A DNA stretch of 16,477 nucleotides from a virus. Location: the IMG/VR virus record IMGVR_UViG_3300045988_151306, one strand, 5' to 3'. Below, piece after piece: positions 208 through 16,477 of the stretch. Positions within the stretch are counted from its first letter, which is position 1, and every line of letters starts with the position of its first letter. The translations under genes were made by a program, and so were the position numbers. The notes below the pieces were generated by a model. That model saw nothing but the letters and a program-made list of their open reading frames with translations, did not search any database and was not told where the DNA came from.

Positions 208-1620
208 TTACGCGCTATAGCTACATGATCCGCCTACACCACCCATGTTACCGCTTGCTCCGTAAATGGAAAGCTGACCCGATGAATCAATGAAACCGAC
301 CTTTGTTGAGGTGCCGCTATTTGTATAGCAAATATATGACGTATTTGTTGACGGTCTCGCCCAGCCCGGTGCTTGAGCGGATGCATAATTTGGAATGTCA
401 CCTCCGATTTGGAACGTGACGACTCCGTTTGATAATGTGAAGTTTGCAGGCGCGCCGGCAAAATTCACACACCCTTGTTCGAAGCGCCCGTTATACGATC
501 CTTCGATGCCCTGATAGAGAAAACCGGCAATTATTTTCGCGCCCTTTTCATTAGGGTGTATATCACTCGACGGAAAACAGTCTGTGCGCCCCTTCAACCA
601 CGTCCAAGCGTGGTTTAAAACTATAGCTTTAAAATTAGCAAGCTCGTTGCAAACATAACTGCATTCCAGTTTGTCATCGTTCGAAAGCGGAGTTGAGTCG
701 TAGAGATAAGGGGCAACCACAACTTTAGCGTCCGGCCAGTTGTTATTGATAACGCTGAAACAGTTATCAACCGCAGCTCTGGCCTGCTGCTCCGTGATGA
801 TGTCGTTTCGTCCTCCACATATAACGATCAAGTTAGGTTTAAGCTTATCGTTCGCGGCTTTCTGCAGCTGATTCTCAAACTTCTTGCCATTGACGTTCCA
901 TCCGGCGCCGCTGACACAATAATTGTGAAGCGTGCACCCGGGAATGAGCTTCGAGAGCTGGTAAGCCCAGGAGCGTTCTTGCGGCGTTATATCGCCATAT
1001 GAATCGCCGATAGTAAGCAGTACGGTTTTAGTATGCGTTTGTATATCGGCCAGGGCAGCTTGCACAGCGTTAGGCGTGATGCCACCGTCGGTCTGCGCTC
1101 CAACTGCGTTGTAGAGCTTTACGTGTCCGTAATTGGTGGAGTTGCCTACACCATACGTCGTTGCCGTGCTCGCATGGCTGATAGGCGCCTTAGTGCTAAC
1201 TTCCGTTCGGACTGCCTGCACAGCGTTGGGCGTGATGGCCCCGTCGGTCTGCGCTCCGACTGCGTTGTACAGCTTTACGTGGCCGTAATTGGTGGAGCTG
1301 CCCACTCCGTACGTCGTTGCCGTGCTCGCGTGGCTGATAGGTGCCTTGGTCGCAATGCCATTCGCGTTCTGCGTAATCCGCTCGTCAAACCGCGCCACCT
1401 CTGTTCGGTACTGTTCGATTTGAGCGTTATAGTTTCCCGTAAGAGCCCAGTATTCTTCATTAGAGATAAGAATTCCGGCTGGCACGAATTGACGAGACGT
1501 GTATGAATTGCCTTCGTTGTAGACAATCGTCAATGGCTCGTAACTCTTCGATGAATCCCACTGCAGAGGGTCTGCAAACAGGGGCACGTAACGCGCGCCG
1601 ATATATTGCGTGACTGCCAT
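208..1620 (-). CDS. Tail fibre / receptor-binding protein with C-terminal SGNH (GDSL) hydrolase domain and an internal 52-aa tandem duplication
   Basis: 470-aa ORF with ATG at 1620. SGNH blocks are present: LLTIGDSYGD (block I), VICGGRND (block III), SSDIHPNEKG (block V, DxxH). The N-terminus (QYIGARYVP...WDSS...YxxxSxxxVPAGI...EYWAL) resembles conserved virion-anchor N-termini of Gram-positive phage fibres. It is the last gene of the structural operon, in the position of the phi29 appendage genes. Confidence 0.65.
   Translation of the reverse strand: MAVTQYIGARYVPLFADPLQWDSSKSYEPLTIVYNEGNSYTSRQFVPAGILISNEEYWALTGNYNAQIEQYRTEVARFDERITQNANGIATKAPISHASTATTYGVGSSTNYGHVKLYNAVGAQTDGAITPNAVQAVRTEVSTKAPISHASTATTYGVGNSTNYGHVKLYNAVGAQTDGGITPNAVQAALADIQTHTKTVLLTIGDSYGDITPQERSWAYQLSKLIPGCTLHNYCVSGAGWNVNGKKFENQLQKAANDKLKPNLIVICGGRNDIITEQQARAAVDNCFSVINNNWPDAKVVVAPYLYDSTPLSNDDKLECSYVCNELANFKAIVLNHAWTWLKGRTDCFPSSDIHPNEKGAKIIAGFLYQGIEGSYNGRFEQGCVNFAGAPANFTLSNGVVTFQIGGDIPNYASAQAPGWARPSTNTSYICYTNSGTSTKVGFIDSSGQLSIYGASGNMGGVGGSCSYSA
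1039..1350. repeat. Two tandem copies of a 156-bp unit (52 aa each, TKAPISHASTATTYGVG[S/N]STNYGHVKLYNAVGAQTDG[A/G]ITPNAVQA...) inside the fibre gene
   Basis: Direct repeat units at 1195..1350 and 1039..1194 are about 90% identical by eye. The antisense ORF 1033..1506 is an artefact of this repeat. Confidence 0.85.
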
Positions 1621-2511: not shown

Positions 2512-3060
2512 TTACCACAGCGGTACGGTCGGAACCATAATTCCGGTGAACAGCACGTGCTCCAACTCGTCGAGGATCAATACGTCCACGTCGTTCCACG
2601 TTCGGGCGAATTGCACCGCGAGATTCGCGGCGTTGCCCTCGTGGATAACGTCCGCCTCGCGGTCATTGCCGGTCGATGCATAATCGGAGTTTCCGGAAAG
2701 CATCGTCTCGGGGAAGTCCGAGAAGATATCGCGCGACTTCGAGCGCTCGCGCCCGTCCTGAAACGGATTCACGCCCTGCTCAACGCGTTCATAGAGAAGC
2801 TTGTATTTCGGCATGATCTCGTTGAGCTTGCGCAGATACGCGCGTTTCCAGCGTGAGGGCGTGATGATGGACACCTCGCGGTCGTAGAAGCGGTTTAGGA
2901 ACTTGCGACAAAGCTGCGTGTATTGCAAATCGCTGTAAGCGTCGAAGCGCCAAGAATCATCCTCGAACGGCCGATAGAATCCCATTTCATACCACTCGCC
3001 AAGGGTGATCGTCATACCGTCGTAACGTGCGTTAGTGGGAACATCGGAAAAGTCGAACAT
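2512..3060 (-). CDS. Putative lower collar / tail tube protein (positional analogue of phi29 gp11)
   Basis: 182 aa from ATG at 3060 (MFDFSD...) with RBS GAGAGGAG 6 nt upstream. An alternative in-frame ATG at 3075 would overlap the portal gene. The function call rests on synteny only. Confidence 0.4.
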   Translation of the reverse strand: MFDFSDVPTNARYDGMTITLGEWYEMGFYRPFEDDSWRFDAYSDLQYTQLCRKFLNRFYDREVSIITPSRWKRAYLRKLNEIMPKYKLLYERVEQGVNPFQDGRERSKSRDIFSDFPETMLSGNSDYASTGNDREADVIHEGNAANLAVQFARTWNDVDVLILDELEHVLFTGIMVPTVPLW

Positions 3061-3061
3061 G

Positions 3062-3997
3062 TCAACTCCTCTCAATAAGCGTGTCGTAGCGGTGCCGCAT
3101 GTCGTAATTGTCGGTGATGTTGTCGCGCGCCCACACCACGGTCACAGGTTCCGTCAACCTGCCACCGAATCGCGCATTGAGCTTATCGCACGCGGCTCTG
3201 CGCGTGGTGAGCGGTGAAAGGCGCGCGAGCTCGGTCGGCTGCATGGTCGAGTTTACCTCGTCCTCGATCATGCGCTCTTCCTTGAATGGCATGGAGTCGA
3301 TGCCCAGCTCGCGGTAGATCGCATCCCACGTGTTAGCCCAGTCCTGCTGGAGTTTGTCCCCGATATACTCCTTGGCGCGCTCGGGCATGGTCGCGCTGGT
3401 CTGGATGTCGCTAAAGTTGTCATATGCGAGGACGAAAGGCTCGCCGTTGGCTATGTTCTTGTAGAAGTTCTGCACGTCGAATGCGCGGTCTTGCGGCCCG
3501 GTGATGACCAATGGCATGCGCATGTGATAACGGTTGATCTGCTTCGTGCGCATGATGTCGGTCAGCTCGCGCGCCCATATGTTAATCTTGACCATGAGCG
3601 GGTAGCGCGTCGAATTGTCCCAAATCCATACGCCGTTCGTCCAATTGCATAGAAAATCGGTCTTACCGGTCGCGCCAATCGCGCGCCATGCACGAGGCTC
3701 GTCGTACATGTTCGGCGCGCCCTGCTGCACGCATTTGAGCGATAAAAGCGTATCACTGGTGAGCGACGGATATGCGAGAGTTGCGGCTCCCTCAGTTAAT
3801 AGTACCCATTCCAGATAACGTTCGTTGCACGTCTCGGGGAGTCCCACCCAGCGGAAGCGCGATAGAGCAAGCTCGATAAGGTCGTTTTGGAACATGTTGA
3901 ACAACTGCTGGTTGTACGCTTCGGTTTGCCAGTACGTCGCTTGCTGTCCCGGCCTGAACGGTTTTTTCTGCTTGTAGCCCCTGCGGCCCTTGCTCAT
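3062..3997 (-). CDS. Head-tail connector / portal protein (phi29 gp10-like)
   Basis: 311 aa (phi29 gp10 is 309 aa). By-eye alignment to phi29 gp10: F-R-W-VGLPET vs FEWENLPPT, EERMIEDEVNSTMQPTE vs KKERMVTDEVSSNDEQIE, AACDKLNARFG vs EACEKINELYG. RBS AAGGAGGT lies 6 nt before the ATG at 3997. Confidence 0.85.
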   Translation of the reverse strand: MSKGRRGYKQKKPFRPGQQATYWQTEAYNQQLFNMFQNDLIELALSRFRWVGLPETCNERYLEWVLLTEGAATLAYPSLTSDTLLSLKCVQQGAPNMYDEPRAWRAIGATGKTDFLCNWTNGVWIWDNSTRYPLMVKINIWARELTDIMRTKQINRYHMRMPLVITGPQDRAFDVQNFYKNIANGEPFVLAYDNFSDIQTSATMPERAKEYIGDKLQQDWANTWDAIYRELGIDSMPFKEERMIEDEVNSTMQPTELARLSPLTTRRAACDKLNARFGGRLTEPVTVVWARDNITDNYDMRHRYDTLIERS

Positions 3998-3998
3998 T

Positions 3999-4262
3999 TT
4001 AGACCTCCTTGTAAACGATCTGCGCTTGCAAAGCGGCTTTCATGGATTCTAGCGCGTCGCGCTGCGCGGCTGTCTGCCTCTCTATAAGCGCCGTCATAAG
4101 CGCGTCGTGCGCTTGCGCATCTTTGCCCACGGTGGCCTCGCGTCGCGCGCGCTCGACCTTGTAGGCGATGAGCGCGTCGATCTCCGCGTCGCTCATGTTC
4201 TGGTACGTCCCGGCATTCAACAGTGCGTCGATGTCGGGTTTAGGCTCGATCAAGTCCGGCAT
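3999..4262 (-). CDS. Hypothetical small helical protein between tail knob and portal genes
   Basis: 87 aa, ATG at 4262 with strong RBS AAGGAGG. phi29 has no counterpart at this position. Confidence 0.55.
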   Translation of the reverse strand: MPDLIEPKPDIDALLNAGTYQNMSDAEIDALIAYKVERARREATVGKDAQAHDALMTALIERQTAAQRDALESMKAALQAQIVYKEV

Positions 4263-4271
4263 TTTTCCTCC

Positions 4272-6698
4272 TTAAAAGTTGTCGTAAATGCTAACGCGGC
4301 CTATCTCCTCGGGCTTGTCCCAAACGGTCACGCCCTTAATGAGTATATCCTTTACAGCGGCCTGCGCGCCCTCCACGACGTCACCGGTGCCGCTGCACCA
4401 TACCTCTGTGCATTTCCAATAGGTGAAGTGCCGCATGACCTGCATCCGCTCCATGCTCCACTCGCGCATGAGCGTGTATCCGTAGCGCGCGAAGGCCGAT
4501 GCCGCATTCATGATGTCGCATTCACGTTGCGTGACGATCTGCGCGAACAGCGCGCGCGGTGCGGTCGCGCTCGATCGTCCGTTTGCGCCTACGCCGAACT
4601 GCACCGGCGCCGCGACGCCCGCCTGCTTCAAACCGGCATTGATCGCGTCAATCGCGGTCGCGTACGCGCGCCCCGCATTCGCATCTCCAGTTTCCTTTGA
4701 ACGCCCCGCGTTTGCGTCTCCGGTGGACTTCGAGTTGTCCGCGTTGGTGCGCGTGAGCGTGGCGCTTGCGTTTGCGCTGTATGTGCTTGCGTCGTTGCGT
4801 ATGTTGGTGTTGCTGGTGGCCGTCTCGCTCTGAATGCCGTAAGTGGCCGCGGTGTACTGCATGGCGTGCAATGTCTTTTCAAGTGAGTTGGACTGCGCGA
4901 GCCCTGCGGCTCGAACGTTGCTCGATTGCGAGACCGCCGCAGCTGCGTTTGCAGACGGGAAAGATACTGCCATGTCGGTAACGCCGCTCACGGCTGCGGT
5001 CGTGGCTCCTGCAGCTCCGCCGAAAAGGCCCCCCGTGACCACGCTTCCGATGGTTCGCGCGGCTGCGGTCGCGTTGTTGTTCGCGGTGGTTATCGCGATA
5101 ACGTCGTTCTTGAGGTCCGCCATAGATGTCGATGTCGCGTTGTCGCTGTCGCAGTCTGCTTTCAGTTTTTGATTTGCGGCGGCGGCTCCATTTAAGGCCG
5201 CTGCGTTTGCGTTGGTCGTGATGGAGTTGTTCGCGTTTACGTTCACGCGGTTCACGTCGACGATGTTCGCGGCAACGTTGTTCGCGTTGGTTTGCGCGGT
5301 GGCGTTAGACGCAAGCGCGTTGGTGTACGCGGTCGCGTTAGATGCGAGCGCGGAGGCCTGCGCGTTGTCCGCTGCGAGCTTCGCATGAGCGCGGTTGTAC
5401 ACGGTCGTGTAATCGGCACGGCTCGCCGCGCTCTGCGTGACCTGCATGATGGGGAGGTTCCAGCTCTTAAGGTACTCACCCCAAGCACCGCCGAAGTCGT
5501 ACGTGCGGCCCTCCATCGTCTGAAACGTGAGGGTATCGGTCGCACCGGCGATGTCAAGCAAACGCGCGTCGATGGATATGTAGGGCATGATCAAGTTCAC
5601 GGCGCTCGCGATCTCGATGCCATGCGCGCCCAAGTCCTCCACACGCACGATGGAGGATCGCCCGCGCTCGTCGCTCACGCGGATCGCCGCGTAAGGGTAG
5701 GTATAGAGCTTTGCGAACGGGGCTGCTTGTGTTGGATAGCCGAAATCCGAAATACCCGGCCGCAAAAGCGGCTCGACCTTCTGTACCGCGTCGCACACGG
5801 TGACGGTCACTCCCCACATCGTTAAACCGCCTGACTGCGTGAGCAAGTCGGCGGGCGCGAAGAACACGCCCTGAATGGTCTGTTTGACCCACGGCGCGTT
5901 CTGCTCCATCGCGCGCAGGAACTTCTGCAGATCGCCCACCGCAACGGAATACACGCGAGACGCGAGGATACCCGACGTCTCCGGCTCGGAAAGCGCGGGC
6001 ACGGTCGGTGCGGATGCCGTGCCTAAATCGCCCTGCAGATCGCACGTTGTCGCGATGCACGCGCGCTGGGTCGCGGCGCTGTAATTCTTGACGGCGCGGC
6101 TGCGCTCGATGTAGGGTTCCCCACCGGTGTTCACGTCCGCCGTGAGCAGGTAGGTGGAATTGTCTTTCGGGTCGGCGAGGTAATCGGCGATGGGCGATGC
6201 CGCGACGGGGGCGTGCCCGCGTTCGAGCAGTATGTAATCGAATCGCATGTCATTGATGTAGGTGGTCCACATGTCCAGTTCGAGAACAAGGCGCGTGGAG
6301 TTCGGTGAGAGCTGCTGCGCGTCCAAAATGAAATAGAAGTAACGCGCCTTGCGCTCGCCGCTCGCGTGCTCGATGGGTTGCGCGTCGCTCGTCATGCGCG
6401 GGAGATCGACCACGATGTAATTGTAGACCTGCGCGGATGTCACCGGCACGGGTACCTTGGCGCTTCCATCGGGCTTGACGTTGAACATGGTCTCGAGATT
6501 CACCACGTCACCGGAAAGCGCGTCAAACCACTCATCGCGCTTGGCGTCGTTCTCGAACTTCACGACGTTCTCGTAATCCCCGCACCACGGGACATTGCAC
6601 ATTTTGAGTCGGGCGGTCGGCTTGAACCTCGAATAGTCGAACGTGTTTTCGTATGCGTACACGTCCACGTTTCCGAGATTAGGGAAATCCGCATTCAT
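4272..6698 (-). CDS. Tail knob protein (phi29 gp9-like) with a greatly expanded Ala/Asn/Thr/Ser/Gly-rich low-complexity region
   Basis: Similarity to phi29 gp9: YFYFILDAQ..LVLELDMWTTYINDMRFDYILLERGH vs [35 protein letters not shown], and C-terminal FARYGYTLMR / GVTVWDKPEEIG vs FHKYGYKINR / GITLWHTDNIG. The hydrophobic Gly/Ala loop IGSVVTGGLFGGAAGATTAAVSGV (about 4950..5060) corresponds to the gp9 membrane-active loop. Of two adjacent ATGs (6704, 6698), the second has correct AGGAGG spacing. Confidence 0.85.
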   Translation of the reverse strand: MNADFPNLGNVDVYAYENTFDYSRFKPTARLKMCNVPWCGDYENVVKFENDAKRDEWFDALSGDVVNLETMFNVKPDGSAKVPVPVTSAQVYNYIVVDLPRMTSDAQPIEHASGERKARYFYFILDAQQLSPNSTRLVLELDMWTTYINDMRFDYILLERGHAPVAASPIADYLADPKDNSTYLLTADVNTGGEPYIERSRAVKNYSAATQRACIATTCDLQGDLGTASAPTVPALSEPETSGILASRVYSVAVGDLQKFLRAMEQNAPWVKQTIQGVFFAPADLLTQSGGLTMWGVTVTVCDAVQKVEPLLRPGISDFGYPTQAAPFAKLYTYPYAAIRVSDERGRSSIVRVEDLGAHGIEIASAVNLIMPYISIDARLLDIAGATDTLTFQTMEGRTYDFGGAWGEYLKSWNLPIMQVTQSAASRADYTTVYNRAHAKLAADNAQASALASNATAYTNALASNATAQTNANNVAANIVDVNRVNVNANNSITTNANAAALNGAAAANQKLKADCDSDNATSTSMADLKNDVIAITTANNNATAAARTIGSVVTGGLFGGAAGATTAAVSGVTDMAVSFPSANAAAAVSQSSNVRAAGLAQSNSLEKTLHAMQYTAATYGIQSETATSNTNIRNDASTYSANASATLTRTNADNSKSTGDANAGRSKETGDANAGRAYATAIDAINAGLKQAGVAAPVQFGVGANGRSSATAPRALFAQIVTQRECDIMNAASAFARYGYTLMREWSMERMQVMRHFTYWKCTEVWCSGTGDVVEGAQAAVKDILIKGVTVWDKPEEIGRVSIYDNF

Positions 6699-6710
6699 GA
6701 ACATACCTCC

Positions 6711-6778: not shown

Positions 6779-8155
6779 CTATGCGATGGTGATGTCAACG
6801 GTCGCGGTGTACTTGCTCGTCGCGCCGGACGGATTCACGTAAGACGTGGTGCCGGTGACGTGCAGGACGTTGTTCGCCTCCAGATCGGACTTCTGCACGT
6901 GCAGCACGCCCAGACGATCGACGCGCGTCGCGGAGTTGAGCGCAAGCGGTTCGCCCTCGCTCGCCGCGGTCTCGCCTGAAACGCTCCACGTCACCGCGTC
7001 TGGCGCAACCTCGATGCCCTCGTCATTCGCGGTTACGGTGCCGGTGAGCTCCACGGTCATCTGCGTGGACTCGCCCGGCTTAAGGCTGGTCTTGGCAGCG
7101 GTGATGTTCACGCCGGTGACGGACTGCGTGATGGTGGAGACGGTGGTAGGCGCGTCGGTAGTGAACAGGATCGCAGGGACGAACGGGGACGCGCTCACGA
7201 CCTCCCAGTGGTGCAGGTAGTAGTTCGTGCTGAGGGTCTGAGGATTGTAGAAAGACTCGTTCGCGTAGACGTAGTCGTTGCAGACAAAGAAATTATCGGT
7301 GGTGAGCAGGGCGAAGGCGTTGGGGATGGGAAGCTCGGGAACCTCGATGGTGCGGTATGCGGCCTCGGCCTTGTCCAGATTGAACACGCTCGCGAGGGTG
7401 TCGACGTCGATGGAAGCGGCTGCGTCCGCGGTGATGAAAAGCACGAGCTCCTCGGGCTTGGCGAAGGTGGGAATGCCGTACTCGGCGGACACGGGGGAGT
7501 AAAGCGACGTCGGGAACTTAAGCTTCTTGGCGTAGGCGCGAACCGCCTTCAGGAACTCCTTACCGGTCGCCTCGTCGGTCGGGGCGGCGCTCACCTGATG
7601 CTTGTAGAAACCCCAGTTCCGCTCGTAATATGCGAGCTGGTTGAGCATGCACAGGTACTCGTCGTAATTGTCTGAATTGCGCGGAGCGGTCATGATCGCG
7701 TCGATGAGGCGGTTCAGGCCCATCTCGTCGGCGAAAGCCTGCTGCAGATCGGGGAGCTCGACGCTGATGTCGTAACGGTCCTTGCGGTTGACGGTGTGAT
7801 ACCACACTGCGGCCTCGGGGCGGCTCACCTTAAGCAGCGTTGCATCGTCCACGTCGTAGGTGTGCGCCTTGATCCACTTGAGCGCGGACTCCTGAATGGC
7901 CGAACCGTAGCGGAGATTTGCGCCCTTGAAGACGGTGAGCGGATTCTCCCACTGGTTGTTATGCACGATCTGCGTGCCGATGCGATTGACGAAAGCGTCC
8001 ACGAACTCGTTCAGATAACGTCGGTTCATGGGGTCGAAAAGAAACTTGCTGGTCGCGTCGATGCCCTCGATGGTCGGGTTCGGCACGCGCTGCTGAAAAT
8101 CGTTGGTGCCGGAAAGGTACACGCGGCCCGCGATGGTGGTGTTGTTGGTTGCCAT
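6779..8155 (-). CDS. Major capsid protein (phi29 gp8-like) with C-terminal BIG2 Ig-like domain
   Basis: 458 aa (phi29 gp8 is about 448 aa). Matches to gp8: [10 protein letters not shown] vs [26 protein letters not shown] vs [35 protein letters not shown] vs [31 protein letters not shown] vs YWNYYYHVWQTLS. The C-terminus [27 protein letters not shown]...VTWSVSG is a Big_2-type fold. RBS AAGGAGGG is present. Confidence 0.85.
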   Translation of the reverse strand: [458 protein letters not shown]

Positions 8156-8684: not shown

Positions 8685-9755
8685 TTACTTTACCCCATAC
8701 AAAGCCATCGCGTCTAGGAAACCTTCGCGCACCTTCACACTCTCAAAAAGCACGCTCCCCTCGTAATACATCTGAACGATCACCCTAAGCGTCTTGCTAA
8801 CCCGCTGCGCTGCGATGCGGTTTGGGGTGTTGTCCTTGCGCGTTAGCGCGTACACGTTACCCGCGTTATTTGGTATCTTTCCGGTGACGTGGTAGTACCC
8901 TTCGGAAATGTCAATCCAGATTCCGTACTCCGTTCCCATATGAACGCACCCCATGACGTACTTCGCGCGCGGGGGCTTCTTGGCGATGTAACGGTTATCC
9001 TCGGCGAAGTCGTTCGCGTAGGTTGCTTTTGCGTAACCGGTCACCCGCCCCATTCGACCCGCAAGGGTGTGCTCCATGCGGTAAGCATCGTGCTCGTCGG
9101 ACTCAACGATGTGCAACAGGCACATCTTGTCGAGATACCACGTGTACCCGAATTTAGGTACGCCAGTCACACCAAACGCGGCGAAATAAGGATTAATCAA
9201 GTCAACTGCGTTGCCCAACAAGAACAGACGCGGCTTCACGCGATTCTCGTTATAGGCGTCCTCGCGCGCCAAAGAATCGATCATGCGGCTCAACGTATTC
9301 CATTCATCGCGCTTGTACTGATGTGAGCTGTCGATTTTTTCCATAATGGCCTCGTCGAAAATAATATTCTCGACGTTTACGAACGTGCTTTTTTTCGCTC
9401 GCTGCAATTCGGCGAAACCGACTATGTAACCACACGTCTTCCACGGCGTGCCCTTCTTCGAGTTCTTCGGGCGGTATTTGAACTCGTCCGCCTTGCACAT
9501 ATATTCATAGGCGCTAAATTCATCATCCGTGGCGATGAGCTTGTCAAAATAACTATGCTTCACCGCGTCGCGCTCGTTTAAAGTGCGGCACACCTCCACG
9601 AACCTCTGATCTTTCTTGATCGCGCGGTTGAGCGCATAGGCGCGAAGTCCGTATGTCTTTCCCTTGTTCGGCGCGCCGACGACCATAGTGATGTCTGCGT
9701 TGTAGGAAAGCGTTTTTTCCCAGTTGTAATGCACGCCGTCATTAAGATTTACCAT
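8685..9755 (-). CDS. DNA packaging ATPase (phi29 gp16-like encapsidation protein)
   Basis: 356 aa. Walker A is GAPNKGKT and Walker B is ENIIFDEA. Matches to gp16: KTLSYNADITMVVGAPNKGKTYGLRAYALNRAIK vs KMLSYDRILNFVIGARGIGKSYAMKVYPINRFIK, and LLGNAVDLINPYFAAFGV vs CLSNAVSVVNPYFLFFNL. The start overlaps the pol stop (ATGA-type coupling). Confidence 0.85.
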   Translation of the reverse strand: MVNLNDGVHYNWEKTLSYNADITMVVGAPNKGKTYGLRAYALNRAIKKDQRFVEVCRTLNERDAVKHSYFDKLIATDDEFSAYEYMCKADEFKYRPKNSKKGTPWKTCGYIVGFAELQRAKKSTFVNVENIIFDEAIMEKIDSSHQYKRDEWNTLSRMIDSLAREDAYNENRVKPRLFLLGNAVDLINPYFAAFGVTGVPKFGYTWYLDKMCLLHIVESDEHDAYRMEHTLAGRMGRVTGYAKATYANDFAEDNRYIAKKPPRAKYVMGCVHMGTEYGIWIDISEGYYHVTGKIPNNAGNVYALTRKDNTPNRIAAQRVSKTLRVIVQMYYEGSVLFESVKVREGFLDAMALYGVK

Positions 9756-12250
9756 TGCGCTTCATTCCCTTCATCGTCTATATACGTGTAGGTCGCCCGA
9801 TCGTCCTCAATATCTATTACGCGCTCTGTGGTGTCAACCGCGCGCCCGTACCGCTCTCGCATGTACGCGATGGTGCGGGCGTTGCCACCCTTATCCGCGT
9901 CTCCCAACAAGCGCTCGGACGGATACAGCGCGATTGACTCGTGCGTATGCACGTGGGACGTTTGCCCCGTGTAGTCGGTTATGTCCATGTCCAGCACGTC
10001 CGCCGCTGCCGGACGGTAATGCTCCAATGCATGGCAAACCGGTTGCGAGACGCGAACGCCCCATCCCAACACGCGTGGGGCCACCTCCTCGAATCCATGC
10101 ACCGCGCTCATGTCATCAATCCAATTCTCGATGTGATACATACCCGTCGGTCGCGATAGGCCCGCGCATGTGATGTGCGCGTGATGCCCGTCCCAGCTCA
10201 CGCGCGCCTTGTTCCAAGCGTCCATGTGCATGGGGTACGCCTCGCCCTCGACCTCGAATGTGCCAACTCCGGTGAGCGGTGAGGCGTAATCGGGGAAGTT
10301 CTTGCGCACGCGGCTCATGCATAGGTCGATTGATGCCGTCACCGCCTCGTGAAACGGAGCTAGTGCCCGCATGAGATCGCTTGCAGAAACATCTGCATCG
10401 CATGAGATTTTAAGTGAATCGGTGTCACCTCCCAGCACGCGCACGCGCTCGCCGAACGACTTATATACAAGCTCGATTGCCGCGACGATCGCCATGCGGG
10501 AACCTCCGACGATGCGAAGGCCGTAAGGATATAGAACGAGCTTCTTCTTAGCGTCCTCATAATGCTCCTTATATGTCTCGCGTGTTACGATCGTGTCACG
10601 ATCAACGCATATCTCACCAGCATCGACCTTGTATGCGCATTTGAACACGTCTTGCGCCTCCATTCCGTAAATCGAATTAAACATTCCCTTGACGGTGGAA
10701 TTGTAATAGGCCTCGAGGTCTGCGCGTTCCATCGCACCGCTGCGGATGCGCTCGGCGATTCCCTCGGGGATGCTGCCTGGTATCTCGCGCGTGTACGGCT
10801 CTCCCGTCTCGTATGTCTTAAGGATCTGCTTGCAAGCGTCCTTGCGCGCATAGAACAGATTAGACAACAACGTCACGTAGTCCGGCGGCTTAACGAAGCT
10901 CATTGTCCCCTCGCCTAAAATTACCTCCATCGCATCCCAGGCATACACGCGGCTCATGCACCACAGCTCCAGCTCAGAGACGTTCACGATGCACGACGCG
11001 GCTTGAACGAGCTTGCCGAACGCGAAGCGGCCGTTTTCGGCCACGTCCACGTACCCGGCACTGCGAACCGCCGTCACGGTGTCGCGGTCCGCCTCGCCTC
11101 CCCACTCGCCCAGCTGTCCGGAGCCCTTGAACTTCGCTTCGGATAGCAACGCGATGTCCCAGGACTCGAACGCGCTCCCCTCACGCAAGCGGAGGTTCTT
11201 GAACCTGATTTGCGCGTGGAACGCGTACCCGAAAGGCTCTTCCCAGTGCCGCATCGCCTGATCTAAATCAGTGCTGCAAACGCCCTCGGCCATCGCCTGC
11301 AGGATGCTCGGGAGGACGCCGCGAAAATTAACCGGCTGCATGTGGCCGTTGATGTAAGCATGGTGAGCGGACGTCTCGTCGATGCTGTAAACGTTTTTCT
11401 GCACGATGCCGGAATACCGCGCGGAGGTGAACGTGAAGCCTCCCCTGAAACACGCCTTACGCAGTGCGTATTGCGCGTAAGTCGGGGCGAGTTCCTCGGC
11501 ACACATGCGCTCGAACGCCGCTTGCACTGAGATCGGTTTGCCTTTTTCGCGCGGGATGCGCAGACGGCCAGTCTCCATCTTGCCCGCCTGACGCACAAGT
11601 GATGTCTTGGTCAGCACGCGCACGCCAAGCCATTCAGGCTTCAACCATTCATTCGATTCCAACAGATAACGCAGGTAAGCCGGAATCACCTCGGTGTCTC
11701 GACCTGCGTAATAAAGCTCCTCGTCGGTCAGCGGGGTTTCCGGAGTGCGAACCTTCGAGTAATCCCAATCACCAACGGCCTTCGGCAAACCGCACGTTTC
11801 TCCCATCTTCGCAAGTCCGCGCATCTCAAGATAAAAGGTGTCCCAGAACCGCAACTTGACCGCGCCGTCCTGCACGATGTCAACGGTGTATGCGCTCGTC
11901 GCGCTCTGCGCGCTCGCGACCATGTCCCAGCGCTCGTTAAGCTCGTACATGAGCGGTTGGAGGTCGAACATTAAGTTATAGGCGCATATGACCGGAATGC
12001 AATGCTCGTCTTCGCCCCACGTTATGTAATCGTCTATGACACGCTGCATGTCCTCGCCGTGCCGGTAAAACGACACGCGCCCCGAGCCCACCTCATATGT
12101 GCGCAGATCGCAACCGCGAACGTCATTCACGATGTAAAGCACCGGGTAGGCGCGCCACTGGTTCTCACGCTCGTCAATGCAGACGTTGCACGTCTCGGTG
12201 TCATACGCGGCTGCGATCTTGAATTGCGGTTTACGTTCCTTACACCCCAT
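9749..12250 (-). CDS. Protein-primed family-B DNA polymerase
   Basis: 833 aa. Exo I is YDTETCN, Kx3NSxYG is KGMFNSIYG, motif C is LGGDTDS. The size and inserted regions fit protein-primed PolB. It lies downstream of and translationally close to the terminal-protein candidate. Confidence 0.9.
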   Translation of the reverse strand: MGCKERKPQFKIAAAYDTETCNVCIDERENQWRAYPVLYIVNDVRGCDLRTYEVGSGRVSFYRHGEDMQRVIDDYITWGEDEHCIPVICAYNLMFDLQPLMYELNERWDMVASAQSATSAYTVDIVQDGAVKLRFWDTFYLEMRGLAKMGETCGLPKAVGDWDYSKVRTPETPLTDEELYYAGRDTEVIPAYLRYLLESNEWLKPEWLGVRVLTKTSLVRQAGKMETGRLRIPREKGKPISVQAAFERMCAEELAPTYAQYALRKACFRGGFTFTSARYSGIVQKNVYSIDETSAHHAYINGHMQPVNFRGVLPSILQAMAEGVCSTDLDQAMRHWEEPFGYAFHAQIRFKNLRLREGSAFESWDIALLSEAKFKGSGQLGEWGGEADRDTVTAVRSAGYVDVAENGRFAFGKLVQAASCIVNVSELELWCMSRVYAWDAMEVILGEGTMSFVKPPDYVTLLSNLFYARKDACKQILKTYETGEPYTREIPGSIPEGIAERIRSGAMERADLEAYYNSTVKGMFNSIYGMEAQDVFKCAYKVDAGEICVDRDTIVTRETYKEHYEDAKKKLVLYPYGLRIVGGSRMAIVAAIELVYKSFGERVRVLGGDTDSLKISCDADVSASDLMRALAPFHEAVTASIDLCMSRVRKNFPDYASPLTGVGTFEVEGEAYPMHMDAWNKARVSWDGHHAHITCAGLSRPTGMYHIENWIDDMSAVHGFEEVAPRVLGWGVRVSQPVCHALEHYRPAAADVLDMDITDYTGQTSHVHTHESIALYPSERLLGDADKGGNARTIAYMRERYGRAVDTTERVIDIEDDRATYTYIDDEGNEAQW

Positions 12251-13830: not shown

Positions 13831-14499
13831 TTAATAATACGTGATGATTGGCTTGTAACCCTTCGAGCGGAGCTCACCGGCGAACTTCTCCGCGTTGGAC
13901 TTGATCGAGAACGCGCCCAACTGGACGCGGTAGAGCTTGCCCGGAGTGCTCGGGGCATCGGGCGTCTCGGGAGCGATGACGTTCGCGCCGATGCCAGCGG
14001 CTTGCAGGATACCGCGCGCCAGATCGTCCATCTGATTCATGAACTTTGCGCGATCACCGTCATTGGAGATGAAACCGCATTCAAGAAGCCGGTAATTCAC
14101 GCCCGCGCTCGCGGCTCGGTTCGGATTCGCCAAATCGGAACGGCCCACGATCGTGGAGGAACGCCCGGGAAAAAACGAAACGATGAAAGAGGCAAGAGCC
14201 TTATCGAACGCATCCGGGCTAAATCCCTTCTTGATGATGACGTGACCACCGCGCGCGGATGGTGCCGCGCTATCCATGTGAAGCTCAAGCACCATCGCGC
14301 CCTTGGGACACTGACCCTTGCCGATGCCGTTGGACTCATACCAATTAACGTCCATGTCGCCGATTTGAACATCGGAGGTGCCCAGATCTTTGATGCGCGC
14401 GGCGAGCTTGCGCACCAACGCGGCCTCGGTCTGACCTCCAGCGCACGCGCCTGAGTCTCCGGCTCCATGGCCGCAGATGATAAATAGCTTACAACTCAC
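13831..14499 (-). CDS. Endolysin: N-acetylmuramoyl-L-alanine amidase (Amidase_3) with C-terminal SPOR domain (CwlC-like)
   Basis: 222 aa. Amidase_3 signature ICGHGAGDSGA...E...LHMDS...RLLECGFISN. C-terminal SPOR-like segment YRVQLGAFSIKSNAEKFAGELRSKGYKPIITY. The start overlaps the holin stop. Confidence 0.8.
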   Translation of the reverse strand: MSCKLFIICGHGAGDSGACAGGQTEAALVRKLAARIKDLGTSDVQIGDMDVNWYESNGIGKGQCPKGAMVLELHMDSAAPSARGGHVIIKKGFSPDAFDKALASFIVSFFPGRSSTIVGRSDLANPNRAASAGVNYRLLECGFISNDGDRAKFMNQMDDLARGILQAAGIGANVIAPETPDAPSTPGKLYRVQLGAFSIKSNAEKFAGELRSKGYKPIITYY

Positions 14500-16422: not shown

Positions 16423-16477
16423 TCCCAACCCCGCGTGCCTGGACTCGGCTAGATCAGGTGCGCGGGGTTTCTTTGTG
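16423..16477. repeat. Right inverted terminal repeat (ITR), 55 bp
   Basis: Reverse complement of 16423..16477 is identical to 1..55. The window therefore appears to span a whole linear replicon. Confidence 0.9.

Follow-up and report, generated by a model that had tools for sequence, protein, structure and literature searches.

A lengthened L-loop, predicted to fold as a repeat-built helical hairpin, in the tail knob of a phi29-like phage family

The window analyzed here, the whole 16,477-bp stretch of IMG/VR virus record IMGVR_UViG_3300045988_151306, encodes on its minus strand (4272..6704) an 810-residue phi29 gp9-type tail knob (distal tube) protein, an identity established by PHROG assignment, a profile search of the PDB, Foldseek, and synteny. 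Its central segment, rich in small and polar residues, is read from sequence comparison and structure prediction as the homologue of the gp9 L-loop with both helices lengthened, predicted to form an antiparallel hairpin, and not as a foreign or disordered insert. The explanation that best accounts for the observations as a whole, and the one considered probable, is that this hairpin is stored in the knob lumen and extruded as an extension of the tail tube. An earlier note on the same DNA had described the segment as a low-complexity insertion of roughly 270 residues at 4640-5420, placed around a membrane-active loop, and had proposed either adaptation to a thicker envelope or a hypervariable, slippage-prone sequence as its cause.

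Identity of the knob protein and its central segment

The knob open reading frame (ORF) specifies 810 residues, or 808 from the Met at codon 3 that serves as the start in public gene calls (P0001), compared with 599 in phi29 gp9. A Pfam search with the protein alone gave no match, and phmmer of the single sequence against the PDB returned chance matches only, so an alignment profile was needed to place it. The protein matches phrog_2248 ('tail protein') at E=1.3e-34, and a 90-sequence profile finds phi29 gp9 (5fb4, E=5.5e-13) and C1 gp12 (4eo2, E=3.4e-9) in the PDB over four collinear stretches. Pairwise comparisons extend these assignments to both ends of the chain: hhalign pairs residues 35-365 with gp9 14-359 (probability 96.9%), BLASTP pairs residues 735-806 with gp9 527-594, and the profile search places positions 728-798 on gp9 528-594.

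The predicted structure leads to the same family. A single-chain AlphaFold2 model has a mean predicted local distance difference test score (pLDDT) of 83.7, and a Foldseek search with it matches 5fb5, 5fei, 5fb4, 8egs_Y, and 4eo2 at E values from 5e-16 to 8e-14, all with probability 1.00 (5fb5, E=4.8e-16; 8egs_Y, which is Andhra gp12, E=9.5e-15; 4eo2, E=7.9e-14). The phi29 gp9 and L-loop structures 5FB4 and 5FB5 are reportedly those of Xu et al. (2016, 2019). The fold shared with these homologues consists of an N-terminal tube-like beta-sandwich, a tip beta domain, and a C-terminal domain. In the window, the N-terminal knob body with its tube-protein-like beta-sandwich and tip beta domains occupies 5403..6704 on the minus strand (residues 1-434, pLDDT mostly >90), and the C-terminal knob domain with the stop codon occupies 4272..4616 on the same strand (residues 697-810, pLDDT >90). 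The gene lies between those for the major capsid protein and the connector and lower collar in a protein-primed podovirus genome of the expected size (about 16-20 kb), and the order agrees with gp8-gp9-gp10-gp11 on the phi29 gene map. The identification of a gp9-like knob of 808-810 residues in the earlier note is thus borne out by PHROG, PDB profile, and Foldseek alike.

The compositional bias reported for the central segment is equally real. Coordinates 4640-5420 correspond to residues 429-689, where Ala accounts for 26%, Asn for 13%, Thr for 12%, and Ser for 9% of positions, compared with Ala 11%, Thr 7%, and Ser 6% in residues 1-428. The structural unit, however, is residues 435-696 (nucleotides 4617-5402), which reaches slightly past the boundary given earlier and of which about 60% are Ala, Asn, Thr, or Ser. 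Two motifs recur within it, ALASNATA at residues 452 and 463 and GDANAGR at residues 662 and 673, each pair spaced by exactly 11 residues. Both reflect direct repeats in the DNA. The first (5283..5348, minus strand; Tandem Repeats Finder period 33, 2.1 copies, score 105) encodes LASNATAYTNA/LASNATAQTNA at residues 453-474 of the ascending helix, and its 33-nt copies, 5283-5315 and 5316-5348, are identical at 28/33 nt (85%). The second (4662..4736, minus strand; repeat family D4) encodes STGDANAGRSK/ETGDANAGRAY at residues 660-681 of the descending helix; the repeat in the DNA spans 4669-4734, and copies 4669-4701 and 4702-4734 agree at 24/33 nt (73%).

Between the two duplications sits the hairpin tip (4944..5069, minus strand; residues 546-587), which holds an uncharged, Gly/Ala-rich stretch of 26 residues, TIGSVVTGGLFGGAAGATTAAVSGVT (residues 551-576). 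This stretch closely resembles the tip of the phi29 L-loop in its content of Gly, Ala, Ser, and Thr (73% vs 75%) and in Kyte-Doolittle hydropathy over 25 residues (1.19 vs 1.13), and the tip region aligns weakly, by profile, to gp9 393-488. By analogy with phi29 it is presumed to be the membrane-active turn. Because the collinear anchors on either side bracket gp9 ~362 to ~528, the extra residues must lie at the position of the L-loop, so that the excess does surround the equivalent of the hydrophobic loop of gp9, as had been supposed. Its extent was overestimated: since phi29 already has an L-loop of ~75 residues at this point, the net excess over gp9 is ~190 residues, not 270.

Evidence for an antiparallel helical hairpin

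Following the tip domain and preceding the C-terminal domain, the segment is modeled by AlphaFold2 as helix, tip, and helix, with the uncharged Gly/Ala stretch at the turn. The ascending helix (5070..5402, minus strand; residues 435-545) is continuous over 111 residues, of which 29% are Ala and 21% Asn, and its pLDDT declines from ~92 at the base to ~50 near the tip; the descending helix (4617..4943, minus strand; residues 588-696) is likewise continuous over 109 residues and recovers from ~48 to >90 toward the base. Confidence therefore falls symmetrically toward the tip and lies below 50 for residues 538-596. Only one Pro occurs in residues 430-699, and Gly residues are few outside the tip. 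Foldseek matches to the hairpin part are weak (4ke2, probability 0.93, E≈1; 5xg2; 2ch7). The first of these, the hyperactive antifreeze protein 'Maxi' of winter flounder, is also a long, antiparallel, Ala/Thr-rich two-helix hairpin with 11-residue (hendecad) periodicity and an Ala-rich core; the likeness of Maxi and of SMC and chemoreceptor coiled-coil arms to the knob segment is one of architecture only, with no homology and a different context and function.

Support for a fixed antiparallel register comes from sequence co-variation. Mutual information with average product correction was computed over cross-arm column pairs in 116 distinct close relatives. Within 4 of the line i+j=1132 lie 45% of the 20 highest-ranking pairs, compared with 10.5% of all cross-arm pairs (binomial p=9e-5), and a scan for the best antiparallel constant returns i+j = 1128-1132. 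The two 11-residue duplications obey the same relation. Their centers, at residues 462.5 and 670.5, sum to 1133, and the position predicted to face the first in the i+j≈1132 register is residue 669.5; the duplications therefore face each other across the hairpin. Among 119 close relatives (72-100% identity), both are present in three (P0001, P0002, and P0021) and neither in the other 116, and a single one is never found. As evidence for a hairpin the matched pair is suggestive; it represents one lineage and hence is not statistical.

The comparison of lengths among relatives, which the earlier note had called for, also speaks to its proposal of a slippage-prone segment. Apart from the two matched units, the arms are free of indels in all 119 close relatives, other indels being of 3-5 residues and confined to the tip. 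The duplicated units are themselves diverged in DNA sequence and fixed in one clade. Hypervariability through slippage is not upheld by this pattern, even though column entropy in the segment is about twice that of the flanks. One relative, P0045, shares 93-100% identity with P0003 across the flanks and 27-50% over the distal ~170 residues of the hairpin (about residues 460-630), with no indel; this mosaic suggests recombination, a cassette-like exchange, or rapid divergence at fixed length. An 875-residue NCBI entry (P0020) was left out of these comparisons. It has duplicated blocks (~70 N-terminal residues and ~75 residues of the ascending helix) and a truncated C terminus, and it looks like an assembly chimera, not a natural variant.

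Length does vary in the family at large. An exhaustive HMMER search recovered 857 clusters (50% identity) at E<1e-3, mostly from metagenome assemblies, with the nearest annotated relatives coming from human samples. Measured between anchors in 148 full-length representatives, the central segment spans 194-585 residues (median 264); at 254 residues by the same anchors, the knob of the window is ordinary for its family and near the median length. These homologous segments, including those equally long or longer, are predicted to fold, which in part fulfills what the earlier note had named as a refutation and does not support the notion of an unstructured, low-complexity add-on; what they are predicted to form is a repeat-built helical hairpin and not a globular domain. 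The variation is moreover symmetrical. In the 118 representatives with a clear tip, its center lies at 0.483±0.039 of the segment, and the lengths of the N-terminal and C-terminal arms are strongly correlated (r=0.81, p=3e-36). When the comparison is restricted to 26 mutual-nearest-neighbor pairs, a crude control for shared ancestry, changes in the lengths of the two arms remain correlated (r=0.73, p=2.5e-5) and have the same sign in 18/23.

An 11-residue period is likewise shared by both arms throughout the family. Residue self-identity reaches 0.197 in the N-terminal arm and 0.192 in the C-terminal arm at lag 11, compared with ~0.10 at other lags, and recurs as echoes at lags 22 and 33. Lag 11 ranks first in 92/148 N-terminal and 95/148 C-terminal arms (median z across the family, 2.8 and 3.15), with a signal that rises with arm length. 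The corresponding z values in the window are 2.0 and 5.9, partly from the duplications. The longest representative, P0210 (1150 residues), has ~18 near-perfect units per arm with the consensus ADxSAETAKTN, which places A/S/A/A at positions 1, 4, 5, and 8, where the small or apolar core (a, d, e, and h) of a hendecad would lie; AlphaFold2 models its arms as long helices with a few breaks, at lower confidence. Against this background the repeat in the lineage of the window is degenerate, and the ASNATA and ANAGR repeats are best read as one-unit gains within an old repeat architecture. Eleven residues make three helical turns, so a unit added to each arm would lengthen the hairpin while keeping its register. 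By this route, the hairpin would grow or shrink as 11-residue units are added to or removed from both arms, the two 33-nt duplications of the window being one such matched pair.

Proposed storage, extrusion, and reach of the hairpin

The closest structural precedents are the phi29 and Andhra knobs. The phi29 L-loops are first bundled as helices in the tube of the knob; after genome release they exit and make up a membrane-spanning helix barrel ~37 Å high with a 32-Å channel (PMC6542822). The corresponding stretch of Andhra gp12, residues 393-500, is a helical loop within the lumen; it constricts the channel to 12 Å, and its extrusion as 12 helices has been proposed (PMC9710869). The protein described here shares with gp9 its family, fold, gene position, and a helix-tip-helix with an uncharged Gly/Ala tip at the matching site in the chain, and with Andhra gp12 (8EGS) a 'channel loop' that in the latter is resolved as a helical hairpin inside the knob cylinder. 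It differs in scale and in surface. The phi29 loop has ~75 residues and forms a barrel with a hydrophobic outer surface, and the Andhra loop has 108 residues with no reported array of 11-residue repeats, whereas the segment here has 262 residues, in polar repeat arms of ~110 residues each, and the tip alone is hydrophobic.

By homology with these systems, each subunit would contribute an antiparallel hairpin of ~110 residues per arm, ~165 Å long if straight, built from degenerate 11-residue repeats of small and polar residues and capped by the uncharged Gly/Ala turn. Six such hairpins would be stored as a 12-helix bundle that plugs the channel in the knob lumen; the hairpin is about as long as a whole knob (145 Å in Andhra). 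Upon infection they would be extruded through the tail tip to form an alpha-helical barrel approximately four times longer than the 37-Å barrel of phi29, with only the tip entering the cytoplasmic membrane and the DNA passing through. The proposed principle, a helical protein held in the tail or head lumen and released to bridge the envelope, is that of tape measure and ejection proteins such as T7 gp14-16, which extend a conduit across the envelope. Those are separate gene products, whereas this element belongs covalently to the distal tube protein as one of its loops. The segment is internal to the knob ORF, between conserved knob domains, and membership in the tape measure or ejection protein class was rejected on these grounds.

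The neighboring lower collar protein may provide a reason for such an extension. Its gene (2512-3075, minus strand; phrog_5472, 'lower collar') encodes 182-187 residues, of which 37-103 align to gp11 37-106 with an hhalign probability of 99.2%. Residues 103-258 of gp11 (156 residues) form the 180-Å stem tube of phi29 (PMC6542822). Where gp11 has this beta-tube domain, the collar of the window has ~44 residues, with room for a tube of only ~50 Å. The hairpin may therefore be deployed to extend the tail tube and restore reach across the cell wall, since the lower collar has lost most of the beta-barrel stem. In an alignment of lower collars, two segments next to a conserved FPQT..DYA motif, one on each side, are kept in cultured actinophage collars and missing from those of the family, and lengths are 183-197 residues in family relatives and 214-270 in the cultured actinophages. 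Over 14 phages, longer hairpins go with shorter lower collars (Spearman -0.79, n=14, p=8e-4), a relation that lacks phylogenetic correction and is largely a contrast between clades, and the roughly estimated sum of tube and barrel is 194-226 Å in 10/14, including phi29 (214 Å) and this phage (226 Å). The trend would support reach compensation between clades.

Cultured phi29-like phages of Actinobacteria (Av-1, Bifidobacterium BP1/BD811P, Microbacterium Curie, Curtobacterium Reje, and Arthrobacter Anjali/Bouclier) are 25-28% identical to the window protein over both flanks and have the same knob architecture. They differ in having a shorter central segment, ~151-194 residues, and longer lower collars (223-270 residues). 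The one published hexamer model, that of the Bouclier protein, has been set against phi29 over 33% of atoms only, in a text that makes no mention of a hairpin (PMC13286697). The same architecture occurs in Rhizobium phage RHph_N3_8 (L007, 2953-5106), which infects a Gram-negative host and has a central segment of ~157 residues. Because that value stands beside the 151-194 residues of the Actinobacteria phages, a simple account in which the loop expanded to span a thicker envelope does not fit and is somewhat disfavored; the segment would instead be longer where the phage itself has a shorter stem tube.

Several observations weigh against the proposed hairpin or its deployment. In the lineage of the window the lag-11 signal is weak when the duplications are set apart, as in a relative without them (P0003: z=0.35 and 2.4), and in the distal third of the hairpin the pLDDT of the model is below 70. 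In a hydropathy power spectrum, the window arms lack a significant peak in the 3.3-3.9-residue range (3.5-3.7: p=0.66 and 0.74), and a classical amphipathic coiled coil is not claimed for these arms, the Fourier test for heptad or hendecad periodicity being not significant. The paired duplication, too, stems from a single evolutionary lineage. Reach compensation cannot explain variation within the family, as the collar is constant while the hairpin varies threefold; a within-family trade-off between the two, examined in four contigs, was rejected, with collars of 183-197 residues whether the hairpin has 194 or 585. Finally, the longest hairpins, at ~290 residues per arm and ~430 Å, exceed a 145-Å knob unless they are folded back or run up through the portal.

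This last difficulty is taken up in a more far-reaching version of the deployable-tube account, which can be offered only tentatively. In this large uncultured family, a rigid beta-barrel stem would have been replaced by a deployable alpha-helical tube. Its 12 helices, with a length of 16 nm here and of as much as ~43 nm in relatives, would be stored in the tail lumen, and the longest would pass the portal and enter the capsid to form an inner core; the tube would telescope out across wall and membrane, its length tuned in three-turn steps by matched units.

Less plausible, though compatible with extrusion and not exclusive of it, is the view that the hairpin serves mainly as a gatekeeper or plug and as an assembly scaffold, filling the lumen (and, in the long forms, the portal channel or capsid axis) to hold DNA and terminal protein, so that crossing of the wall would not depend on how long it is after ejection. 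The homologous Andhra loop, which narrows the lumen to 12 Å, has indeed been termed a gatekeeper (PMC9710869). A 165-Å bundle approximates the length of a 145-Å knob, its tips would extend as far as the portal where the stem tube is almost absent, and a composition of small residues fits tight packing of 12 helices. However, 75-108 residues suffice to plug this lumen in phi29 and Andhra, so that 262-585 are not needed for plugging alone, and the conserved, uncharged Gly/Ala tip argues for a retained membrane-active role.

It is quite unlikely that the hairpin lies outside the knob as a fiber-like stalk that touches the host surface and determines host range. Arms rich in Asn, Thr, and Ser, the exchangeable distal cassette of 170 residues seen in P0045 relative to P0003, and the apparent excess length of the longest variants for the lumen could all be accommodated by a stalk, but the segment takes the place of the L-loop and channel loop, found within the lumen in both solved virions, its tip is an uncharged Gly/Ala stretch and not a binding domain, and a separate GDSL-esterase fiber gene is present at 208-1620. 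Least credible of all, and largely refuted already, is a disordered, compositionally biased linker drifting by replication slippage as a floppy tether for the hydrophobic loop: the low-complexity composition, two tandem 33-nt duplications, insignificant amphipathic periodicity of the window arms, doubled entropy, and low pLDDT around the tip are what it would predict, but it does not account for arms without indels save one matched 11-residue pair in 119 relatives down to 72% identity, repeat copies too diverged for recent slippage, helices with pLDDT >90 at the base, co-variation on an antiparallel register, or correlated arm lengths about a central tip in 148 representatives.

Genome context and significance

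The window is a complete phi29-like linear genome, since positions 1-55 are an exact inverted repeat of 16423-16477 from the very first base; terminal inverted repeats, here of 55 bp, are the expectation for protein-primed replication. Almost all of its genes lie on the minus strand. A B-family DNA polymerase of the protein-primed type (9749-12250, minus strand; 833 residues) is divergent, as its match to PHROG 1907 is restricted to the N-terminal ~290 residues and a Pfam search returned nothing at E<=0.01. Pfam and PHROG assign the gp16-type packaging ATPase (8685-9755), the phi29-type major capsid protein (6779-8155), and the connector (3062-3997). Between the knob and connector genes lies a minus-strand ORF of 87 residues (3999-4262) without a family match; ORFs of similar size occupy the same slot in L010 (87 residues), L012 (80 residues), and OP549880 (108 residues), and no such ORF is present there in Av-1, Curie, or Reje. 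Plus-strand ORFs that overlap the knob region (4107-4700, 4510-4833, 4843-5172, and 5292-5825) and an out-of-frame minus-strand ORF (5554-6060) have no Pfam matches and were set aside as by-products of high G+C content.

Two further genes encode proteins with enzymatic domains. A 470-residue GDSL/SGNH esterase (208-1620, minus strand) is probably a tail fiber or appendage; it contains, at roughly 1040-1350, an internal tandem duplication of ~51 residues (TKAPISHASTATTYGVG.STNYGHVKLYNAVGAQTDG.ITPNAVQA) and gives a weak match to the phage tail fiber repeat PF03406. The endolysin (13831-14499, minus strand) has an Amidase_3 domain and, at its C terminus, a SPOR domain, a binder of septal (denuded) peptidoglycan. 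As to the host, a near-complete related genome of 15.5 kb (L009, CALGKS010000032.1), with a knob 71% identical to that of the window, was binned in a metagenome-assembled genome of 'uncultured Collinsella sp.', and this binning is the sole hint, too weak to bear a claim about envelope thickness.

The protein thus belongs to the gp9 knob family, with a central element homologous to the L-loop. New are the scale of the loop (262 residues here and up to ~590 in relatives, compared with 75-108 in solved phages), its build from 11-residue repeats, the matched length changes of its two arms, and the nearly tubeless collar that accompanies it; full-text literature searches returned no account of the lengthened loop or its repeats. 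To our knowledge, structural detail on how short-tailed phages of Gram-positive bacteria cross a wall tens of nm thick is limited to phi29 and a few staphylococcal and streptococcal phages. In these, the knob loop spans just the bilayer. The same loop is three to eight times longer here, in a family with hundreds of sequence clusters, and its structure offers a case of architecture read from indels and length co-variation in a sequence that looks merely low in complexity. If the hairpin is indeed a deployable tube, the reach of the tail would be set in part by a stored, extrudable element, with a bearing on the prediction of host range and on the engineering of small therapeutic phages.

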